DNA from: Escherichia coli | Lineage (GTDB): Bacteria; Pseudomonadota; Gammaproteobacteria; Enterobacterales; Enterobacteriaceae | Assembly: GCF_024700885.2 (NCBI RefSeq) | Contig: NZ_CP117016.1 | Direction: 5' to 3' (one strand) | DNA: 64,000 nt | In this document: positions 11,683 to 22,000 of the stretch, piece by piece | How the letters are laid out: every line of letters begins with the position of its first letter | How positions within the stretch are numbered: the first letter of the stretch is position 1 | Position numbers and translations under genes: made by a program | The notes under the pieces: model-generated | The model's database searches: none | Told to the model about the DNA's origin: nothing | Seen by the model: only the letters and a program-made list of their open reading frames with translations

Positions 11683-13500
11683 TCACTCCTGCTGAGACTG
11701 AATTATTCCTAGTGCGTCATAAATCAGTCTTCTGCGTAGTTTATTGTTTTTATCTGCACCATATAACATAAATATATTTTCAACTTTTTCTTCAGGTGTT
11801 CTGAGATAATGGATAAGAAAGGTTATCATTCCAACACAATGGAATAAAGTGAATCCATCAAACAGGCTTATCAGGTTTCCTTTTTTTTCCCGTGTTGTAA
11901 GTATTTTTTCGCGGGTAAGAATATTTGCCAGTTCATGGGGGGCTGATATGTTTCTGCTGTCTATAATGTCATTTATTTTACCAAGGGCTATATCAACTTC
12001 CTGTAATAGGTTATTTATCATAGCTGAGTGAATGTTATTGGTTTCATGTTCCTGACAGTTTATGAACTTATAAATCATTGAGTTATACAGAAATATTACT
12101 CTTCCTAATAAATATGTGTTTGTGTCATTTTGAAGACAGGACTCTGGGTATTCGTGATCCAGTGAAATAAGGTTAATGGACTCGCCCTGATAAGTCATAA
12201 AATAATTGATGTCATTTAATAATGCTCGGATATTTACATGATTTTTACTGAATTTTATTTTAAATGCTATCTTTAGTATAGCAAACGCGGCAATGATAAA
12301 TCCAAAAGGTAATTTCTCATAGTTCAGTTTATTGATGGTGCGATGAACACTTTCAGTCTTTCCTGAAGTAAGTTGTCTCAAACAGTTAACAAATTCTGTA
12401 TAGCCATTTAAGACATAATGGCATGAAGAATCTTTTAAAGAGTTTTCTATGTTTTGTAATGTGACGCCGTTGTTCAATGTATAAATGTAACCGCCAAAGA
12501 CAATGTTTTCAATCTCAACGACACAATTTATTGTTTTTTGTTCAGGATAAAGATAAATATCAGAAATACTATAGTCTCGTATTGCGTCAATGGCATCCCA
12601 CGATAATGCACTGTCAATTTTCAGTGTATAAAATGGTGAGTTCTCATTAGGAAAGTAATATATGTATTTGTTCAGTATATTCATTACATCTATTGGGTTG
12701 GTTAAATATAATAACTGGCATTCATATTCTGAAACTTCTCTTTCGCTTATCAGCATTTTATATAAAGTTGTCAGGGTGCTTGTTAATGAAGTTCGTCTTT
12801 CGAAAGCCAGTAATATAGTGAGATAATAACATGCAACCTGAACTTTATCTAAGTCAGAAATTATTTTTTCCTTGTCTTCATTACTTAAATAAAGCAGATG
12901 TTTACAGGTTTCTTTGCATGTGTTGATAGTTGCGATAAGTTTTGTTTTTCCTGGTGTACTGTTTTTGCGAATATTACGAATGAATTCATATACGCCATCA
13001 AAGATATCTTTGAAATGCGCATTCGCTGGCGTGTATCCGGATAAACATAACTTAACGTAATTTCGCAGATATGTCCTTGCAGCATGATATATATCATCCT
13101 CATTATCCGGTATCTGAGTGAGAAAAGAATGAATATGATAGTAAAATGCCATCTCATTATCCGGGCGATATGTGTTCCTGATGTCGAGTGCGAGAATCAT
13201 TGGTACAATGTCATTAAAATATTTTTGTTTTATTATTTGATGTGTTTTGTCTGTAAAAACAGAATAGTGCATTAGCTTAACATAGAGATCTTCATATCTC
13301 CTAAATATAACTTTTCGTTGTTCTTTACTCAATACTTGTTCTTTATCAATAATGTTTATTAATTCATCAAACATGTCGCCCAGTGAATGTTGATGTGAGG
13401 AAAAATTTTTAATATTTCGGATGTCACGGCTATTCTGGTTTTTAGCCAGAACACCAAAACATGAAAAGACATCATACATTATAGTGATAAAATTATACAT
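11683..13500 (-). CDS. Hypothetical 605-aa protein, AT-rich orphan gene convergent with integrase
   Basis: Uninterrupted 1.8-kb ORF, very AT-rich compared with flanking int and core genes; no motif recognised by eye. Confidence 0.7.
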   Translation of the reverse strand: MYNFITIMYDVFSCFGVLAKNQNSRDIRNIKNFSSHQHSLGDMFDELINIIDKEQVLSKEQRKVIFRRYEDLYVKLMHYSVFTDKTHQIIKQKYFNDIVPMILALDIRNTYRPDNEMAFYYHIHSFLTQIPDNEDDIYHAARTYLRNYVKLCLSGYTPANAHFKDIFDGVYEFIRNIRKNSTPGKTKLIATINTCKETCKHLLYLSNEDKEKIISDLDKVQVACYYLTILLAFERRTSLTSTLTTLYKMLISEREVSEYECQLLYLTNPIDVMNILNKYIYYFPNENSPFYTLKIDSALSWDAIDAIRDYSISDIYLYPEQKTINCVVEIENIVFGGYIYTLNNGVTLQNIENSLKDSSCHYVLNGYTEFVNCLRQLTSGKTESVHRTINKLNYEKLPFGFIIAAFAILKIAFKIKFSKNHVNIRALLNDINYFMTYQGESINLISLDHEYPESCLQNDTNTYLLGRVIFLYNSMIYKFINCQEHETNNIHSAMINNLLQEVDIALGKINDIIDSRNISAPHELANILTREKILTTREKKGNLISLFDGFTLFHCVGMITFLIHYLRTPEEKVENIFMLYGADKNNKLRRRLIYDALGIIQSQQE

Positions 13501-13640: not shown

Positions 13641-14402
13641 GGTGATGCCTTCTGACGATAGATTAATGTTGTATTCTATTGGTATCTGGAGACCATATGG
13701 CAACAGTTACAGTATATTCTCCCCGCTGTAATTCCTATAAAGTGTACCGTTATGATCACAGCACCTCAGATCATGAGCGTTTCCAGTGCTAATCCTGCAA
13801 ACGTGTATTTCAACTGAATTACATCTACGAAACCCGAAAACCAGGCATTAAAGAGCAAATTGTTGAAATGGTTCATAACGGAGCCGGGGTTCGCGATAGC
13901 TCCAGAACGCTGAAGGTGGATATCAACACCGTCATTCTCACTTTAAAAAACGCTCACCACGTAAAGTAACCATATCTCCAGCCGCCAGTGTCGATGTGGC
14001 ACTTATCTGTGAACTTGATGAACAATGGAGTTTTGTCGAAAACAAAGCTCGTCAGCAGTGGCACTGGTACGCGTATAAGACCAAAGCTGACGGTGTGCTG
14101 GCTTACACTTTTGGTCCTCGCACTGATGAAACATGCCGTGAGTTGCCGGAATTCCTGAAGCCATTCTCCGCAGGCATGATAACCAGAGACAACCGGAGCA
14201 GTTATACCAGAGAAATGCCACAGGATAAGCATCTTGTCGGCAAGATATTTACCCGGCGCATTGAGCGCAACAATCTGACACTTCGTACTCACATCAAACG
14301 ACCTGCCCGGAAAACGATTTGCTTTTTACGCTCCCTGGAAATTCACGAAAAGCCATTGGTTCATTTATCGAAAACACATGTACTACTGACAGGAGTCATT
14401 AC
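13641..14402 (+). mobile_element. IS1-family insertion sequence, divergent, probably degenerate
   Basis: Left end ggtgatgcc.. resembles the IS1 inverted repeat and right end ..ggagtcattacc resembles IS1 IRR; InsA-like start MATVTVYSPRC..HERF.C is interrupted, and the InsB-like ORF (13996..14433: ELDEQWSFVENKARQQWHWYAYK..FTRRIERNNLTLRTHIKRPARKT) is present. Confidence 0.65.
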
Positions 14403-14599
14403 CAGGGCCTCTTTTGCTGTTTTTTTGCCATGAATGATAATGAGAATCGACAGCGATAAGGGAAAAGTAAAATAACACTAATGCTGTCGTTTTCTATCAT
14501 ATTGATTTTTAATTATTTATTGTCTTTTTTCTCAACCCATTTTTTTACGCAGACAAATTTACCTGGGGAATACAAACTGTAACGACAGTTCACCACACT

Positions 14600-14908
14600 A
14601 TGGGGGATAAAATGCCAGATCAATCCGGACACTGCAGGACTCCTTCACGCATCTTACGGATGCCTGAACTGAGCCAATTGTTAGGTATATCTCGTTCGAC
14701 AATTTACGAAAAAATGAATCCGTTATCGAAATACTACGATGCAACCTTCCCCAGGCCGGTACGTCTTGGTAGTGGTTCTGTGGGCTGGCGTTCATCAGCT
14801 ATTGACGAATGGCTTACTTTACATACTGTACCTGCCAGATCAGCAGTCAAAGGTGTTAATGACGAAGTGAGACATACGCTTTCTTCAGATATGACCATGA
14901 GCAGATAA
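14600..14908 (+). CDS. alpA: AlpA-family phage regulatory / excisionase-like protein
   Basis: RILRMPELSQLLGISRSTIYEKMNP..YDATFPRPVRLGSGSVGWRSSAIDEWL matches the AlpA/MerR-like HTH signature; located downstream of int as in CP4-57-type islands. Confidence 0.8.
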   Translation: MGDKMPDQSGHCRTPSRILRMPELSQLLGISRSTIYEKMNPLSKYYDATFPRPVRLGSGSVGWRSSAIDEWLTLHTVPARSAVKGVNDEVRHTLSSDMTMSR

Positions 14909-15009
14909 GTTTTTGTCATCACGTGATCACCTCAGGAGGAAAAAGAAGCATAAGAACAATTTAGCCAGAAGTTTAATTGATAAACAGAATTTCCAGCATT
15001 CATTGTTGA

Positions 15010-15345
15010 AAGAGCAGCTATTGTCGCTATTGTCGCTATTGTAGCGGTAATTGCTGCTATAACCGAAACGTATTACGAAAAAGGAAGCATTTATGCCTTA
15101 CATCAAACCGGATATGCCGTATTCAGTATATGCATGACCATCAATGATAGGGAAGGCAATAATTAAAGCTCAATACAATAAACAAGTACCTCTGACTCTG
15201 GTTGCAATGTCAGTATTAACAGCGATGTCAATTGCCTGTCAGAATCAGGTTGACGTATGCAGTCCCAGAAATTTACGTGGGGCCGTTAATATTTACACTA
15301 TGGTTCTGGAGAAAGGGAAAAGACCGGGGGAAAGGTATTAGTGAA
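15010..15345. repeat. Partial tandem duplication of the yfjI-like 5' region
   Basis: agcagctattgtcgctattgt..gctgctat at about 15013 recurs at about 15489; the 65-aa ORF 15144..15341 (VPLTLVAMSVLTAMSIACQNQVDVCSPRNLRGAVNIYTMVL) parallels residues ~38-75 of the 483-aa protein (APLAMVATSALTAISIACQNQIDVCRPGNLHGPVNLYSLIL). Confidence 0.7.
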
Positions 15346-15541
15346 ATAATTTCCGGAGGTATTAAGAATGAGAAATATGAATGATATTTCGTGGTGAATA
15401 ATACAGTCTTCACTGAATTAACCTTATCGGTTTATTAAACATCAGATCTACAAATGCTCTGTATTTCTCAGAGCATCAGGTCTGAATAGCAGCTATTTTC
15501 GCTATTGTAGCGGGATTTGCTGCTATTTTACTAACCCATTA

Positions 15542-16993
15542 ATGAAAAGAGAGGCTTTTATGTGCTTACTTGCACCAGAAAATCCTTATCCGATATATGC
15601 ACTACCACCGCTGGTGAGAAATGCAATAATTGAAACTCAAAAAAATACACAGGCACCTTTGGCTATGGTGGCAACATCCGCATTAACAGCGATCTCAATT
15701 GCCTGTCAGAATCAGATTGACGTGTGCAGACCTGGAAATTTACATGGGCCTGTTAATCTTTACTCTCTGATTCTGGCTGATTCCGGTGAAAGGAAAACGA
15801 CCGTGGATAAAGTGTTTATGAAAGCATTTTATCTCAGGGATGAAGCCCTGGCGGATGAATACGCGAAACTGGTTGAGAATTACAGTACAGAAAAGGAAAT
15901 ATGGGAGCAAAAACAAAAAGCGCTGGAATCAAAATTTCATAAAGAGATTCGTGCCGGTAAAGATTACAAGGCAACAGAATCAGAGCTTGAAACGCATCTG
16001 AATAAACCTCCTGTTCCGCCGCAGATACGTCGAACAATTTTTAATGAGACAACGATAGAGGGAATGTTAAAATATTACTCCGATAGCAATCGCTCTTTTG
16101 CTCTTGTATCCAGTGAAGGGGGGGTGATTTTTGACAGCCGGGCCATGAGTAAACTGGGAATTATTAACACTTTGTGGGATGGAGGTTCTCTTTTCATCGA
16201 CAGGAAATCATCTCCCGGAATTAATTTGAAGGAGCCAAGACTGACGATATCGGTGATGATTCAGCCTGATGTTTACCACAAAGGTTTTTGTACGCGAAAA
16301 AAAGAAATTGTGAAAACGTCAGGACATCATGCAAGGTTTTTGATGTGTCAACCAACATCAACGCAGGGGACAAGGATAATAACCGGAGATAATTATTCAT
16401 CACAGTATCAGGATTTGTTTGAAGAGAGGATCAATGAGCTTATTGATGAAAGTCTGGCGATGAGTGGTGAACGACGTTGCCTTCACTTTTCTCCTCAGGC
16501 TGCCAGAATCTGGACGGATTATTACAATGATGTGGAATCGAAGCTGGGGGGATTGGGGCCTTTAAGACATTGCCGGGAATATGCTGCTAAAAATGCAGAG
16601 TATATGGCAAGACTGGCAGGACTTATTTACCATTCGAGCGGTGAAGAGGGGGAGATTTCCCCTTACACTGCAGAAATGGCGAGAGAATTAGCAATATGGT
16701 ACGGTAATGAGTATGTGCGGTTGTCTAATCCGTTAACTTTTGACAACTCTGCCCTGACCGTACCTGTGCGACTCATTCCAGAGGAGCTTGAACTTTTCAA
16801 CTGGATAAAAAGCTATTGTATTGAGAAGGGGATCCTCTGTATGAAAAAAAATGATATTTTACAGCGTGGTCCGAACCGTTTCCGGAAAAAGGATAAAATC
16901 AACTGGTTACTGGATTTACTGTATGAACAAAACAGAGTTGTACCGGTTATTGAGGGAAAAACGTTGTGTGTCGCACCTAACTTTGACCTCTGA
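15542..16993 (+). CDS. YfjI-like DUF3987-family protein (island replication/primase-associated)
   Basis: 483 aa; gene order int-alpA-this-yfjJ-like parallels CP4-57 intA-alpA-yfjI-yfjJ; family assigned from context and memory, not from a search. Confidence 0.6.
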   Translation: MKREAFMCLLAPENPYPIYALPPLVRNAIIETQKNTQAPLAMVATSALTAISIACQNQIDVCRPGNLHGPVNLYSLILADSGERKTTVDKVFMKAFYLRDEALADEYAKLVENYSTEKEIWEQKQKALESKFHKEIRAGKDYKATESELETHLNKPPVPPQIRRTIFNETTIEGMLKYYSDSNRSFALVSSEGGVIFDSRAMSKLGIINTLWDGGSLFIDRKSSPGINLKEPRLTISVMIQPDVYHKGFCTRKKEIVKTSGHHARFLMCQPTSTQGTRIITGDNYSSQYQDLFEERINELIDESLAMSGERRCLHFSPQAARIWTDYYNDVESKLGGLGPLRHCREYAAKNAEYMARLAGLIYHSSGEEGEISPYTAEMARELAIWYGNEYVRLSNPLTFDNSALTVPVRLIPEELELFNWIKSYCIEKGILCMKKNDILQRGPNRFRKKDKINWLLDLLYEQNRVVPVIEGKTLCVAPNFDL

Positions 16994-17813
16994 ACGACTT
17001 AATCGTTGAGTACATATAGTCTCCTCTGCTACTTGCGGAGGAGACTAATGTCTTTACCATGTCAGCGTTGTATTAGAAAACTCTGGTACAGGTCAGTCAG
17101 TAAATATAACTGGTGTAACCACTATTTACTATTGGATAGAGTGTTGCTCAGGATATTGTCGGCTTTAGTCTGAGGTGAGGTGGGGCCTTCATTGTTTTCG
17201 TGTTCAATAAATAATTTAGGTTAATTAGTATTATTAGTGGAAGTTATGTGATCTGTTATGTTGTCTTGTACGCACTTAACACTGGTTACGTACCGGAACA
17301 CTATTAGAGTATGTTATGGCTCTGTTACAGTTTATAGGTATGAAAAAATATAATCTTTCCTGTATGAAATAATATTCTTATGGTGTGTGGGGTATGGTCT
17401 GTATACCATCATTTTTATGGTGAAGTTAAATATCTGTAGAGGCCTTAAGCTGGGTCGCTGTTTTTACTTAATGGTACAGAAGTATTAATAGCGGTGTTGC
17501 CTGTGGCTACCCGATACTGGCTTTTGTGAATGTCAGATTACTTCCTGTAAGTGATTGAATGGTACTTCCTTAAACTCAATTCTATGAGGTGTGTTTTTAC
17601 CATTGTAATTCGTACTGGTCCTCAGTTTAAGTGAGTCTTACTGTACTCTGAAATATTACCTCTTTGGAGTAATGAGGTAATACGAAACAGTTTTATCAGG
17701 TTGTCTGTGCTGCTGGTTACCTCGTTTATTAATGCCGCGGTACGGCGTTTCTGTACTCTCAGTATTTATGTAATTCCACCTTCCTGTAACTTTTATAAAG
17801 TAAGGACTATAAA

Positions 17814-18377
17814 ATGTATAATGCTAATCCCAATTACGAAATGGACTTCATGATTCTGAAAGACGTGAATGAACACATGGAAGGTCTGTTTCAACGTTTT
17901 TCTAAACTGTTACCTTTCAGAATTGATTTTGCCTACAGGAAAGACACGCCCAGTTTTGGTCATTCCTGTAGGCACAGTATGTGTATTGAAATGCACCGCT
18001 TACTTAGTGAAACCCAAACGATGCTGGCGGGATATTACTGGGTAATGGAATATACGTCAAACAAGGGACTTCATATTCATTTTATCGGCTACTTGGATGG
18101 GCAACGTCACAAGAAATTTTATCGGATATCCAGGCAACTGGGAGATATCTGGAGTCGGATCACGGAAGGGGAGGGTTATTTTCACCTGTGCAGTACTAAA
18201 GACAAATACCCGGTGCGTATCGATCACGTGATTCACTATAGTGATAAGTCTGCGGTAGACGGTTTACGTTACGCCCTTAGCTACCTGGCTAAACAGGATC
18301 AGAAAGAACACGGTATTATTCTGGGCCGTAGCAGGCTTCCCGAAAAAAGCAACCGGGGCCGACCACGACATAACTGA
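17814..18377 (+). CDS. YagK/YfjJ-like (inovirus Gp2-type) protein
   Basis: 187 aa; ..YYWVMEYTSNKGLHIHFIGYLDGQ.. resembles the YagK/YfjJ family found after yfjI in P4/CP4-57-type islands. Confidence 0.5.
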   Translation: MYNANPNYEMDFMILKDVNEHMEGLFQRFSKLLPFRIDFAYRKDTPSFGHSCRHSMCIEMHRLLSETQTMLAGYYWVMEYTSNKGLHIHFIGYLDGQRHKKFYRISRQLGDIWSRITEGEGYFHLCSTKDKYPVRIDHVIHYSDKSAVDGLRYALSYLAKQDQKEHGIILGRSRLPEKSNRGRPRHN

Positions 18378-19039
18378 ATTACAGTTGTATTAGGTATTAA
18401 AATTAAGTTTCTGTAAGTTGTTGGGAGGTGCTTGAGTTAATAGGCAGAAGAGGGCGGGGCGCTTTGTCATCAGTGTAGGGGACCCGAATTTCTGCCGTGG
18501 TACCTCAGTGGATCGGATACAGGTAACGAATATGGTTCATAAATCTGACAGTGATGAATTAGCTGCACTGAGGGCAAACATAACTTGAAGCTTATGGGAT
18601 TGAATGGCGACGTAAACCGCAGAGTCCTGTGCAGTGCGTTTCCGTATTATCCACGGATGAGAAAGTTGCGTTATTTTGTCGACTGTTTCGCGGGCGTGAT
18701 GATGTATGGGCCCTTCGATGGGAAAGCAAAACCAGCGGCAAATCAGGGTACTTGCGGGCCTGTGCTAACGAATGGCAGCCGGGAATAGCGGTAAACTCCG
18801 GATAAAATGTGGGGACTGCGCTCACCGTCAGTTGATCCCTGTATCTGATCTCATCATCTACCACTACACGGTTTAACGGGGCCGCGTCATCTCGGCGTTG
18901 CCCGATAAATTCTTTTCTACGTATAATAACCAGAATGAACGTGTAAAACACCATAGTATTCAGAACTATAAACATCGAAACCTGCCATATTGACTAGAAT
19001 AAATGACCTTATTTTTACTGAAATTTAAGGAGAACACCG

Positions 19040-22000
19040 TTGGAAGTAGAAATGTGGGATGGTGGCTTACAAGAACAGGAAGTATTGGCTATCGAGAAAA
19101 TAAAAGCTGCTTTTTCAGTCAACGTATCTAAGCCTGACAAGCCTTTCCGTAGCGGTTCAATTAGTGAGCAGCTAAAAAGCTATGGTTTTATCGGCAATGA
19201 AATGTTCCCTTGGAAAGGTTATGCAGGTTTTCGATTTGTTGAGGCAAAAAAAGAGGGGGAATTCGATTTAGTTATTGTAACACACTGCAACGTGATCATT
19301 GTTGAACTGAAAGACTGGAACCATCAGCCTGTAACCGCACGCGGAGATACTTGGTTTAAAGGTGATAAGAACATGGGGCGCTCGCCAGTAAGCGTGACTC
19401 GTAGCAAAAAATTCATGCTGGACAAAAAACTCAAGCGTCTGGTAGACCGTTTTACGAACAAAGGCTATATCCCGATTGTTCATTTTTTTGTTGTGATGAC
19501 CGGCAATGCAGATTTCAGCGCGCTGCCGGAGGAACAACGGCGCCATACGATCTCGTTAAAAGATTTCCTGAAGTTTGCCGATCGCGGGAGCTTCAATAAC
19601 TATTTCAAACCGCACCCAGCTACCAAGGTTCTTAACAAGGATTTCCATCTTTTCGATGATTTGTTCCTAGGGCCTCAGACGGCACCAAAAGCCTTGAGAG
19701 TTAATGGCTATGAAGCTAATGATATGATTTTCGAACATCCTAAAAAGGTGTATCGAGAATATCTGGCAAAATCTGAGATATCAACGAACAGCGAAGCGCT
19801 ACTCAGAGTATGGAATTTTAGAAATATAACGGGAACGAAAGCGAATACCCCGGAAGGACGAGCTCAGATTGTTTCACGTGAGCGCGAAGTGTTACAGCAC
19901 ATCAATCACCAGAATCGTGACCTGTATAACCACTGTCTCAGGTCTTTGACGAGTTTTCAGAAAGACGAGGTGACGGCCGAGTATAGCGAAGTCTACGAAG
20001 TTCCGCCGGGTCATGTCCGGTTTAATGAGTTTATCGGAAAATATGGTAAGAACTTTTCTGATATGGACCGCTTGAATGTGGTGAAACTGCTCATTGCAAA
20101 GTTTAGTGATCTCCATGAGATGAAAATTGCGCACAGGGATGTCGCCGATCACAGTCTGTGGATTTCACCTTCAAAAGAAGTTGCTCTTTCGAACTTTATT
20201 TCGGCTTACCACCAGCCAGCCGGAACGGTTGGCGATTACCGTAAGCTTTTATCCGTAGGTGCAGTCCACGTAAAAGACATGCTTGATAAGGGCGAGCTTA
20301 CGCCTTTTCAGCAAGATGTTCATACTCTGGGCCTTGTCGCCTGGCACTTATTTAGCGGTATGCGCATGTCGCCAAAGAGTCTGGAGAAAGTACAGGACAA
20401 CATGCTAAACAGCCAGCACTGGTATTCATCTGTATTACGGGATGCCGTTGCCGCAAAATTCACTTCTGCAACAGAATTCTTTGATGCCCTGAAACAAGCC
20501 GAACCTGCTGGCAAGGATATTCCAACATTTGATGATACTGAGCTTGACCCTTACCGACATGCTATCAATCACGCTCGTCAATACCCGGAAGACGATGGCT
20601 TTCAGTTTCAGGTCGAAACAGTCGACAAAGAAGTCTATATCTCGAAAGGAAGGCTCGTGAAGGCTTGGCTGAATGTTGGGGGACAGGGATACGATCCGTC
20701 AATTAATTTCCAGGTTCTGAAGTTTTTAAAGCAGGTTGAGCGGCTTTCTTCAGTTAAAACAACGTATCTACCTCAAATTCGTGAATTCGGTATCGCATCA
20801 AAATCATCAAGCCTATATATGGTCACGGATCAGGTACAGGGAGAAACCTGGGATAAAATAGCGGTCCCCGATGATGAAAAAATCGACCTCATTGGTAAGT
20901 TTGTCGCCGCCGTTGAGCACTTACATGGTCTGGGTGTTTCTCACGGGGACATCCACCCTGGCAATGTGATATTTGAGACACAGAGCCGTTTGCTTTTTCT
21001 CATCGATATCCCCGATTTTTCACCGTCCGGTGACGAACCTAAAAATCACAGTTACAGCCCTGAATACATTGATAATTGTACTTCTTTTGAACGTGACAAC
21101 TATGCAGTGATGAAGATGTCCTGCGAGTTGCTAGGCATGTCATGGGGGCTGGAATCAGACATTTATCCGACAATCGCGAATGCTATCCGAGCAGAGCTGG
21201 AAGATCCGGTTTTTGGGTTTAAGGATTTAGGCCGCTTTAAAAAAGCGATAGATAGTAATGACCTGGTGCCAGAACAAGACCTGATAGAGATTACTGCAGG
21301 AAATGCCGATGAAATAATCTCTATTCTGCCTGATAACGGGCATCTGTATGTCAAAGTTAAGTCAAATCCTAAAGCGCCAGCTGAAGTAAATGTGACTTTC
21401 TCTGGGATTGGTGGCAGTTTTACTGCGGTGTTCAACAAAGATCAGAAGACGCTGGTTCATGGCTTCAGGCCACGGGCTCGCGTCACAATTCGTAAGCAAG
21501 ATATTGATGAAAGCCAGTTCGAAATTGATACTGGTATCAAGATTATTCCCGGCAGTCCGCAGGATCTGTCGGCGTTGACAGTATTGCTTAATGAAGAAGA
21601 ATCTTTTGCGCGGGCAATCGAGTTGATTGCCGCAACTGAAGATGTTCAGGTACAAGAGCCACTTACGCTTCAGCTAAAAGATACCTTTGCAAGGCTTGAT
21701 AAGCAGACGCTTGAACCTTCTTTAAGAGAAGTGCTGGAAATCCCAACAGTGAAACTGTGGCGCGCCATTCTGGATACTGAAACAGAATCTTATCCAAACA
21801 TTGAAATCAGCGGTGAAGTGGTCCCGGTTGCAGATGCTCATGGAGAGCTTCTTCTCCCTTACTCTGCTGATGTTGATCCACTCGGTGCTTTCAGAAGTAG
21901 TGATGAAGTCGAAGCCTTACAGGTCGATCAGGAAGGTGTTGAGCGATTTATTGGTGAAGTGTCACTTAAGAAGTCAGAGCTCAAAGAGATTCGTCTTGTC

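Follow-up and report, generated by a model that had tools for sequence, protein, structure and literature searches.

A widespread partial repeat of the yfjI 5' region in Escherichia coli integrative islands, with an apparently decaying upstream copy

Proteins with a DUF3987 domain are known or predicted helicases of mobile elements, paired with AEP primases (PMC11724360, PMC5862659), and a PriCT-DUF3987 protein has been shown to be a 5'-3' helicase (PMC11724360). In Gram-negative PICIs and P4-like satellites, an integrase is followed by alpA and then by replication genes, and in EcCICFT073 AlpA activates downstream island genes (PMC6092414). The island described here lies in a 64,000-nucleotide stretch of E. 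coli DNA (the window) and has the same layout; unlike those satellites, it is a large pathogenicity-type island in which packaging genes were not seen. It also resembles CP4-57 of E. coli K-12, with a P4-type integrase, alpA, a DUF3987 yfjI and a yfjJ/Gp2-like gene in the same order, and in CP4-57 a related palindrome (TTCCGCCATTAATAGCGGAA) lies about 50 nt upstream of yfjI. However, CP4-57 is single-copy, with a 128-nt gap between alpA and yfjI and neither fragment nor spacer; its yfjI 5' end shows about 73% DNA identity over a 136-nt block, and the YfjI protein about 40%. A literature search on yfjI, alpA and DUF3987 returned nothing on the duplication reported below.

In the window, the 5' end of a yfjI-like gene and its upstream region are present twice in direct orientation, 466 bp apart (Table 1). 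A gapped local alignment of the copies scored 230, with 255 of 321 aligned positions identical (79%), whereas 200 shuffles gave a mean of 20 and a maximum of 30. The partial duplication of about 330 bp proposed in the first-pass annotation is therefore confirmed, and the self-alignment returned an extended repeat far beyond chance, not merely short low-complexity similarity. It joins two pairs of blocks: 15107-15309 against 15574-15776 (203 nt, 77%) and 15026-15092 against 15492-15558 (67 nt, 73%). The repeat comprises about 68 nt 5' of the start codon and about 85-90 yfjI codons, more than the 60 or so first suggested, and each copy contains a palindrome (37-46 nt), a ribosome-binding site and a yfjI start. 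Near-identity of the copies was not borne out, as they have diverged by 21-27%.

Table 1. Features of the alpA-yfjI interval and adjoining module genes, in window coordinates
Feature	Coordinates	Strand	Evidence
Repeat copy 1, with palindrome, RBS and a truncated yfjI 5' end	15026..15352	+	79% alignment to 15492-15829
Repeat copy 2, with palindrome, RBS and the initial ~90 codons of the intact gene	15492..15829	+	Same alignment; 96% identity with the one copy in island L004
Copy-1 frame remnant	15093..15349	+	ATG 15093, in-frame TGA 15135-15137, 10-nt deletion after 15307, ancestral TAA 15347-15349
Intact yfjI of the island (477 aa; putative DUF3987 helicase)	15560..16993	+	Pfam DUF3987, 282.9 bits; PGAP 'YfjI family protein'
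alpA-like helix-turn-helix regulator, 98 aa (PGAP), K-12-AlpA-like allele	14612..14908	+	Pfam Phage_AlpA
yfjJ/yagK-like 'inovirus-type Gp2' gene, next module member	17814..18377	+	PGAP annotation
Filler between the copies	15353..15440	.	In E. coli genomes found only with copy 1
Copy-2 left flank, resembling the 75-aa alpA-type stop codon and downstream intergenic region (tentative before 15477)	15441..15487	+	Local alignment
Mini-ORF MRNMNDISW*	15368..15397	+	Perfect Shine-Dalgarno GGAGGT (15355-15360) upstream
Copy-1 palindrome, one extra 9-nt unit	15013..15058	+	Fold of -20.7 kcal/mol, z -3.4; 84% mean identity among island lineages
Copy-2 palindrome, 36 nt 5' of the yfjI start	15488..15524	+	Inverted repeat; hairpin of -23.2 kcal/mol, z -4.5; 93% mean identity among islands
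9-nt tandem unit GCTATTGTC/A, 3 units here, 2-5 between strains	15017..15043	+	TRF, 2.9 copies

The gene that begins in copy 2 spans positions 1-363 of the 364 in the PF13148 profile, which is a full-length family match. Upstream, the Phage_AlpA profile (PF05930) matches over 14600-14908 with 68.2 bits against a cut-off of 21; this alpA is annotated in the 100%-identical strain 219, and its product is 52% identical to K-12 AlpA. Downstream, the Gp2-like gene has weak Pfam matches to REP_ORF2-G2P and YagK_YfjJ_C, both under their cut-offs. A sequence search for solved-structure relatives of YfjI returned none, and no tRNA gene was found beside the integrase in 8500-11000.

Of 5,426 complete E. 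coli genomes, 1,337-1,338 (about a quarter) carry both copy 1 and the spacer, at a median of one place per genome, and within this set the spacer is found only alongside copy 1. About 96% of the 1,400 genomes that match a copy-1 query carry the duplication. The carriers are diverged islands at two or more insertion sites, beside ycdU and at thrW, with the same junction and spacer; the island backbone was found in O157:H7, O26, O111 and human blood and urine isolates, and 100%-identical copies of the locus occur in other finished genomes. In a search of plasmids and phages, every record returned was from E. coli, several of the 'plasmids' being megabase-sized, and none was a phage. The detailed analysis covers about ten island sequences of these more than 1,300, and the metagenomic contigs L011 and L012, which end inside the repeat, were not used as firm evidence.

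Strain-specificity, raised in the first-pass annotation, is thus clearly contradicted. That replication slippage recently duplicated the segment in this strain, or that the repeat is an artefact of assembly, is exceedingly improbable: the direct orientation, the short distance and the truly slippage-prone 9-nt repeat inside it would suit such a reading, but the 79% identity, the unique spacer and the recurrence in over 1,300 genomes that were finished independently do not. Slippage, which had been suggested earlier, fails for the ~330-bp repeat, with its unrelated spacer and a junction common to about 1,337 genomes, and holds only for the 9-nt unit (2-5 copies). The repeat alignment, the spacer and the genome spread already refute a recent event or artefact. 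Because the duplication is old and widely inherited, with an apparently decaying upstream copy, it is an ordinary feature of these islands, neither recent nor strain-specific.

Copy 1 shows relaxed evolution, and comparison of its variants suggests that it is a decaying, non-functional pseudogene. Its ATG at 15093 aligns with the yfjI ATG at 15560, the in-frame TGA falls at codon 15, and the homology to yfjI ends near codon 85. A blastx comparison with YfjI residues 1-78 found 41 of 78 identical (E 4e-25) in a single frame with an internal stop, and the Pfam DUF3987 match (33.3 bits) covers only profile positions 1-42 of 364. Copy 1 is accordingly a fragment with an internal stop and a frameshift, not a complete DUF3987/YfjI (PF13148) member. 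The truncated 65-aa ORF reported earlier does exist and is annotated by PGAP (15144-15341), but it is merely the longest surviving piece of an ancestral frame that starts upstream of it. The disabling lesions vary by island and include TGA or TAA at codon 15, TGA at codon 76, deletions of 10 or 12 nt and frameshifts.

The rates of change are in keeping with this picture. Among islands, copy 1 is the least conserved segment, at 77-78% identity versus about 90% at yfjI third codon positions, and dN/dS among copy-1 variants is 1.2-1.9, versus 0.16-0.5 for copy 2. Where residues differ between the copies, copy 2 keeps the outgroup residue 13 times and copy 1 3-4 times (p 0.02-0.05; the value for c1_L013, inflated by a frameshift, was left out), and this polarisation places the excess of amino-acid change on the copy-1 lineage. 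Between the copies, dN/dS is 0.6-0.9, a value in line with two branches of about equal length, one neutral and the other under constraint. Given that the rate tests cover only 65-75 codons and that conversion patches inflate copy-1 divergence, 'neutral' is only an approximate description. Copy 1 diverges between islands even more than yfjI synonymous sites do, so the two parts differ in recombination history and may not share a clean single-origin tree. Additionally, some islands (P0005, P0006 and P0008) retain an open 87-aa copy-1 frame, and the copy-1 palindrome and ribosome-binding site are still recognisable, so that some residual function is possible.

The copies also show evidence of exchange. 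At 36 fixed diagnostic sites, copy 1 of island L009 is chimeric, its 5' part being of copy-2 type and its last 12 sites of copy-1 type. Copy 2 of the same island bears a 3-site copy-1 patch that its sister island L010 lacks, and the single-copy island L004 has a 2-site copy-1 patch in the same place. Judged from these mosaics, sequence exchange between the copies is ongoing in both directions; lying 466 bp apart with near-identical stretches, they still recombine. Single-copy islands of the same yfjI subfamily are L004 (O145:H28 RM12581) and L032 (IMG/VR). Both have a 75-aa alpA followed by yfjI after 96 nt, and their yfjI start and promoter are 95-96% identical to copy 2; unlike the window, they have neither copy 1 nor spacer. 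With its two copy-1-type sites, L004 could be a duplication that has collapsed; one island type would then have returned to a single copy. In the window, a different alpA module is joined at the left edge of copy 1; this alpA is unrelated in DNA to the 75-aa alpA of other duplication-carrying islands.

The two copies do not abut, as about 60-125 nt of filler, for which no homologue was detected, lies at the junction. The spacer, from 15353 to about 15477, has no counterpart in single-copy islands, and BLAST searches against single-copy islands, K-12 and all complete E. coli genomes found no source of the filler and no similarity to alpA, yfjI or single-copy flanks. A simple tandem duplication does not predict the filler from 15353 to about 15440, which has no identifiable source. 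Within it, the mini-ORF is nearly invariant in six island sequences, which over 49 sites is not clearly above neutral expectation. Likeness to an alpA stop and intergenic region is limited to the last ~10-45 nt of the spacer, at marginal significance in comparisons with four alpA 3' ends. With the palindrome flank included, the copy-2 left flank scores 43-45 against the alpA end and intergenic region of L002 and L005; without it, 6/500 and 13/500 shuffles reach the score, and the matches to L003 and L004 are not significant. All duplication-carrying islands examined have this junction in common, consisting of the homology end GTGAAATAATTT and the spacer. The filler implies either that the event was not a clean tandem duplication or that DNA was inserted later.

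We consider it fairly likely that the locus preserves what is left of one old tandem duplication, which took place in the ancestor of a frequent family of E. coli integrative islands, and we infer a single origin in situ. The ancestral islands would have had the order P4-type integrase, alpA, yfjI, gp2-like gene and AEP primase. A segment running from about the alpA end through the palindrome and ribosome-binding site to about yfjI codon 90 would have been copied in head-to-tail order, and some 60-125 nt of filler unrelated to it placed at the junction. The downstream copy would have kept the rest of the gene and encode a working DUF3987 helicase, whereas the upstream stub, without almost the entire helicase domain, would have been non-functional ever since and subject to neutral decay. 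Conversion tracts pass both ways, unequal crossing-over may reduce the locus to one copy, and the 9-nt repeat in the copy-1 left arm grows and shrinks by slippage. The alpA allele of the window would have been joined later, at the left edge of the copy-1 palindrome.

Alternatively, two related but diverged islands or alleles that lay side by side may have been fused through loss of the DNA between codon ~90 of one yfjI and a point close to the 3' end of the next alpA, leaving alpA(A) - 5' yfjI(A) - filler - alpA(B) tail - yfjI(B), in which case the 21-27% divergence would predate the junction. Such a fusion would account for the strong divergence, for unrelated DNA and possibly an alpA tail in the junction, and for the conservative nature of many amino-acid differences between the copies; modules have also demonstrably been swapped, the window alpA allele being wholly unlike that of L002-L005. 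Nevertheless, we regard it as unlikely. A full-length yfjI with a copy-1-type N-terminus was absent from the 27 matches in a set of 5.8 billion proteins, all of 52-146 aa, although this collection of exclusively short proteins may be biased. In 100,044 species-representative genomes, a scan relying on exact words found no relative with copy-1-specific peptide words, only 38%-identical Citrobacter and Yersinia genes, and in E. coli DNA every sampled match of more than 77% identity to copy 1 was a fragment. The concentration of amino-acid changes on the copy-1 lineage (13 versus 3-4) also argues against fusion, as does the dN/dS of 0.6-0.9 between the copies, where about 0.25 would be expected for two long-functional alleles. 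Recombination between island variants, the other mechanism offered by the first-pass annotation, is therefore not favoured as the origin, but it did act afterwards, as the chimeric copies and the joined alpA module attest.

Both copies carry a palindrome of the form AGCAGC..CGCTA-TTG-TAGCG..GCTGCT, which occurs nowhere else in the 64-kb window (0.12 chance matches expected). The 'GCTATTGT-rich motif' described earlier is indeed repeated: it is the 9-nt tandem unit at 15017-15043, which forms the left arm of the palindrome. The unit number differs between strains whose islands are otherwise ~99% identical, with 2 in O157 86-24 and O18, 4 in HS13-1 and 5 in SCZE5. Related palindromes precede yfjI by 35-60 nt in K-12, Citrobacter and Yersinia, where the flanks do not align, and the palindrome is co-inherited with the yfjI type, not the alpA type. 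Conservation across genera and co-inheritance with yfjI make it a candidate cis site, probably of the yfjI replication module. Rfam 15 covariance models gave no family, the sole match being a spurious miRNA (E 0.51, far under the gathering score), and promoter and terminator scans gave counts at chance level. Although the copy-2 palindrome is followed by UAUUUUAC and a scan flags the sub-hairpin 15507-15523, terminator-like totals are at chance, and copy 1 lacks a U run. Repeated units and palindromes lie at both copies, upstream of yfjI, in an interval of 31-34% GC versus 35-43%, in which a composition search found no distinct AT-rich block. Viral contigs gave 17 matches to the motif, 16 by chance and one in a single-copy L004-type locus.

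Copy 1 might have been retained for its non-coding part, with the palindrome (2-5 units) serving as a second operator, promoter, attenuator or origin site for the yfjI module and the coding stub as junk. The conserved position before yfjI in other genera, the uniqueness of the motif in the window, its association with the yfjI type and the stable hairpins predicted for both palindromes would agree with this. In copy 1 of three non-chimeric lineages, the palindrome (85%) and UTR (83%) are also somewhat more conserved than the coding stub (78%). The retention of the duplication in about 96% of matching genomes points the same way, but simple linkage within a mobile island predicts it as well. 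Against this, conservation of the copy-1 palindrome (84%) falls short of that of the copy-2 palindrome (93%) and of a neutral proxy (~90%), 1-3 extra units that break its symmetry are tolerated, the promoter and terminator scans and the composition search gave no support, and single-copy islands exist, so we assign this explanation a low probability. A more specific version appears more doubtful still: the duplicated palindrome would be bound or nicked by the island's YfjI helicase or Gp2-like initiator and would not serve as an operator for AlpA. Two tandem origin or operator sites, 466 bp apart, would then tune island replication or yfjI expression according to how many units (2-5) and how many copies of the site (one or two) are present, and the silent stub could also supply the N-terminus of the helicase with variant sequence.

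These results matter chiefly for annotation and for the biology of the islands. In hundreds of genomes, a 65-aa 'DUF3987 domain-containing protein' is annotated that appears to be the stub of a pseudogene and should be left out of gene counts. Recombination within a very common E. coli island backbone can be followed in the alpA-yfjI interval, including module swapping at the palindrome edge, bidirectional conversion between a dead and a live copy, and possible collapse. The 9-nt VNTR could serve as a typing marker. Furthermore, the palindrome, as a candidate cis site, offers the most useful lead on the regulation or replication of a widespread, uncharacterised helicase/Gp2/AEP-primase module.

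The PICI origin lies downstream of pri-rep and consists of two iteron sets flanking an AT-rich stretch (PMC6092414). The repeats here, by contrast, are upstream of yfjI and 466 bp apart. Tandem partial duplicates with gene conversion are instances of concerted evolution, of which silent-cassette systems such as pilS/pilE are the extreme case. Unlike such cassettes, the island has one partial copy, conversion into the functional gene amounts to one short patch in one island, and nothing points to variation that is programmed or selected. What it shares with concerted-evolution duplicates is a truncated, non-expressed copy adjoining an expressed gene, with mosaic tracts running both ways.

A direct repeat sits between an alpA-like gene and an intact yfjI. 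A repeat search returned two pairs of blocks, 15107-15309 against 15574-15776 (203 nt, 77%) and 15026-15092 against 15492-15558 (67 nt, 73%), and gapped local alignment of the entire copies matched 255 of 321 positions (79%) with a score of 230; shuffled sequences averaged 20 and reached no more than 30. The first-pass annotation was right to describe a partial duplication of the yfjI 5' end and its upstream region. Each copy contains a palindrome, a purine-rich ribosome-binding site and a start codon. Homology extends on the left at least to the GGTCTGAATAGC flank of the palindrome and ends on the right at GTGAAATAATTT in copy 1 and ATGAAAGCATTT in copy 2, around codon 90 of yfjI. The 477-aa protein that begins in copy 2 is a full-length match to Pfam DUF3987 (282.9 bits); the match of copy 1 is confined to positions 1-42 of the 364-position profile.

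Positions of the repeat and of neighbouring island features in the window
Feature	Coordinates	Detail
P4-type integrase	10294-11496	
AT-rich ORF	11683-13500 (-)	605 aa
IS1 transposase remnant	~13697-14389	frameshifted; coordinates transferred from strain 219
alpA-like gene	14612-14908	
Palindrome, copy 1	15013-15058	AGCAGC..CGCTA-TTG-TAGCG..GCTGCT
Copy 1	15026-15352	upstream copy
Start ATG, copy 1	15093	
Lesion, copy 1	15135-15137	in-frame TGA, codon 15
Lesion, copy 1	after 15307	10-nt deletion
Filler	15353 to ~15440	
Shine-Dalgarno and mini-ORF	15355-15397	perfect GGAGGT, 7-nt gap, 9-codon ORF MRNMNDISW and stop (15368-15397)
Spacer 3' part	~15441-15476	
Hairpin	15442-15485	just 5' of the copy-2 palindrome
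Palindrome, copy 2	15488-15524	AGCAGC..CGCTA-TTG-TAGCG..GCTGCT
Copy 2	15492-15829	
Intact yfjI	15560-16993	start ATG of copy 2 at 15560
Primase remnant	~18532-18867	TOTE-system archaeo-eukaryotic, frameshifted; coordinates transferred from strain 219
1,656-aa gene	19040-24010 (+)	
478-aa gene	24007-25443 (+)	overlaps end of 1,656-aa gene

Judged from its sequence, copy 1 is a decaying pseudogene stub. Its translation in the frame of its own ATG pairs with the first 78 residues of YfjI, 41 of the 78 being identical (E 4e-25). The 65-aa ORF previously described as a truncated first copy is present, under the PGAP name 'DUF3987 domain-containing protein', but it is only the longest surviving piece of a broken frame. 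Codon 15 is TGA in the window, TAA in the diverged island L003 and CAA in the diverged island L002, and further lesions vary from island to island: a TGA at codon 76 (L002), deletions of 10 nt (window) and 12 nt (L003), and frameshifts (the locus L013 and the database ORFs P0005 and P0006). Nei-Gojobori dN/dS is 1.2-1.9 among copy-1 variants, 0.16-0.5 among copy-2 variants and 0.6-0.9 between the copies (dS 0.32-0.45). Taking omega as ~0.25 for copy 2 and ~1 for copy 1, these values fit two branches of similar length, the pattern expected if a duplication arose in situ and one copy then lost constraint. Where the copies differ in amino acid, the outgroup residue (K-12, Citrobacter, Yersinia) is kept 13 times by copy 2 and 3-4 times by copy 1 of L002 (p 0.02-0.05); the window's own copy 1 trends in the same direction, but not significantly. 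Mean pairwise identity among island lineages is lowest in the copy-1 coding stub (77-78%), against ~90% at yfjI third codon positions and 81-93% in spacer segments.

When the least-decayed copy-1 peptide was compared with 5.8 billion proteins, the hits were all short ORFs of 52-146 aa, none of them a full-length protein whose N-terminus is of copy-1 type. No relative among 100,044 species-representative genomes carried copy-1-specific peptide words, the only genes to turn up being those of Citrobacter and Yersinia at 38% identity, and all sampled matches in E. coli genomes more than 77% identical to copy 1 are fragments. Because no intact copy-1-type gene was found and the two copies evolved at different rates, the sequences favour a single old in-situ duplication over the fusion of two long-functional yfjI alleles. 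Fusion retains a low probability on account of the unexplained filler at the junction and the few codons on which the rate evidence is based.

The copies have continued to exchange sequence. Identity between them is 88-90% in the genome assemblies L009 and L010, which carry sister islands, and 71-76% elsewhere. At 36 diagnostic sites, defined as alignment columns with fixed differences between the copies, copy 1 of L009 is copy-2-type at 21 of the first 24 (the 5' part) and copy-1-type throughout the final 12; it shares its promoter variant with L004, the single-copy island of O145:H28 RM12581 (97.6% identical over the first 90 columns). Three copy-1-type sites form a patch in copy 2 of L009, which is the functional gene, and this patch is absent in L010. 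A chimeric copy 1 and a copy-1 patch in copy 2 therefore indicate transfer in both directions. Mosaics of the two types also occur among database copy-1 ORFs (P0002, P0004, P0008, P0016, P0017). At the location of the L009 patch, L004 has two copy-1-type sites, and it may represent a duplication collapsed by unequal crossing-over, although these sites could also be retained ancestral states. Recombination between island variants, earlier proposed as a possible cause, finds its place in these later exchanges rather than in the favoured single in-situ origin. On the metagenome contigs L011 (1-641) and L012 (1-617), a copy-1 end and spacer are followed by a copy with a copy-2-type promoter and first 27 codons, which is copy-1-type thereafter and ends at the codon-76 TGA (P0004); the contigs end too early to separate a three-copy arrangement from a functional gene inactivated by pseudogene conversion.

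Replication slippage, the other proposed cause, fits one component and no other part of the duplication: the 9-nt unit GCTATTGTC, which lies in the palindrome's left arm in copy 1. The unit is present three times in the window, twice in O157:H7 86-24 and O18, four times in HS13-1 and five times in SCZE5, with few SNPs in the rest of ~1 kb.

The duplication event is old, widespread and largely explained. Positions 14500-17100 were matched in 1,399 of 5,426 complete E. coli genomes and at least 80% covered in 1,024. At least 80% of copy 1 was present in 1,338 and the spacer in 1,337 (median one place each; among sampled rows never without copy 1), so that the duplication is carried by ~96% of genomes with a match to the copy-1 query. 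Its strain specificity had been raised as a question; more than 1,300 complete genomes share it, in diverged islands. Carriers include O157:H7, O26, O111 and O103 strains and human blood and urine isolates. The alpA-fragment-spacer-yfjI layout recurs in L002 and L003 (the latter at thrW), whose copy 1 is 85% and 78% identical to that of the window. Single-copy relatives are L004 (alpA-yfjI gap 96 nt), K-12 CP4-57 (128 nt) and one IMG/VR contig. In plasmid and phage collections, the structure occurred in E. coli records only and in no phage.

Within the 64-kb window, the motif GCTATTNNCGC-N7-GCGNNAWTWGC is confined to the two copies (chance expectation 0.12). Related palindromes lie 35-60 nt 5' of yfjI in K-12 (TTCCGCCATTAATAGCGGAA) and in Citrobacter and Yersinia (TTCCACTATTAATAGCGGAA), with flanks that do not align. 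In the window, alpA is an allele resembling that of K-12 (52% identity to K-12 AlpA); over 14600-15026, other duplication-bearing islands, compared as L002-L005, have an unrelated-looking 75-aa Phage_AlpA-family gene. This switch falls exactly where the copy-1 palindrome starts on its left side (AGCAGC, 15013), suggesting that the alpA module was exchanged there. All four combinations occur: the K-12-type palindrome with K-12-type alpA in K-12 and with the 75-aa alpA in Citrobacter, and the window-type palindrome with K-12-like alpA in the window and with the 75-aa alpA in L002-L004. By this pattern the element goes with yfjI rather than with a cognate AlpA. Transcripts of the palindromes, if made, would fold stably, at -20.7 (copy 1) and -23.2 kcal/mol (copy 2; z -3.4 and -4.5). 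Promoter and terminator scans were at chance level, Rfam gave no match, and the locus has no marked AT-rich block. The palindrome is a candidate operator, attenuator or origin site. Lower conservation in copy 1 (84%, against 93% in copy 2) and its acceptance of unit insertions argue that the copy-1 version is weakly constrained at best.

The 3' part of the spacer resembles the 75-aa alpA type at its stop codon and in the short intergenic stretch that follows, a marginal likeness whose score was reached by 6/500 and 13/500 shuffles and was not significant for two other loci. No source of the filler was detected in E. coli genomes or the loci fetched for comparison. The Shine-Dalgarno and mini-ORF stretch hardly varies across six island sequences, next to a copy-1 end that is highly variable; at 93% over 49 sites, conservation of the stretch is not clearly above a neutral proxy of ~90%. 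The spacer hairpin (-20 kcal/mol, z -4.7) shows one C-G to U-A double change in L002 and is probably not conserved, since its pairing is broken in L003.

The window at 14500-17100 is 100% identical to E. coli strain 219, in which the island adjoins ycdU and reads tyrosine integrase, 605-aa hypothetical gene, IS1 remnant, HTH/alpA, fragment, yfjI, inovirus-type Gp2 (yfjJ-like) and TOTE-type archaeo-eukaryotic primase remnant. The IS1 remnant lies between the 605-aa gene and alpA, and the primase remnant 3' of the Gp2-like gene. Both are frameshifted. The primase is intact in the single-copy island L004 (787 aa or more), so the replication module of the window's island looks partly degraded. Neither Pfam nor NCBIfam has a match to the 605-aa ORF that lies between integrase and alpA; the corresponding position in diverged islands holds a hypothetical gene of 536-544 aa. 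ARAGORN found no tRNA gene beside the integrase in 8500-11000; in strain 219, PGAP annotates an 'RtT sRNA' that lies ~220 nt 5' of the integrase. Further downstream, a 1,656-aa protein combining NERD nuclease-related, protein-kinase (PglW / MAD6-like) and SF1 helicase (AAA_11/AAA_12, IGHMBP2 / PLuB-like) regions and a 478-aa protein without family matches appear to be an island-borne candidate pair for anti-phage defence.

These analyses yield an annotation correction, the copy-1 'domain-containing protein' being a pseudogene stub. They also document conversion running both ways between a dead copy and a live one within a very common island backbone, and they single out a well-defined cis-element candidate for the yfjI module, which is uncharacterised. 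DUF3987 domains are predicted mobile-element helicases that accompany archaeo-eukaryotic primases (PMC5862659), and for a PriCT-DUF3987 protein both 5'-3' helicase activity and binding to its primase-polymerase have been demonstrated (PMC11724360). In E. coli PICIs, AlpA activates downstream island genes (PMC6092414). Gene order and these published roles put the repeat at the start of the putative replication module of the island.
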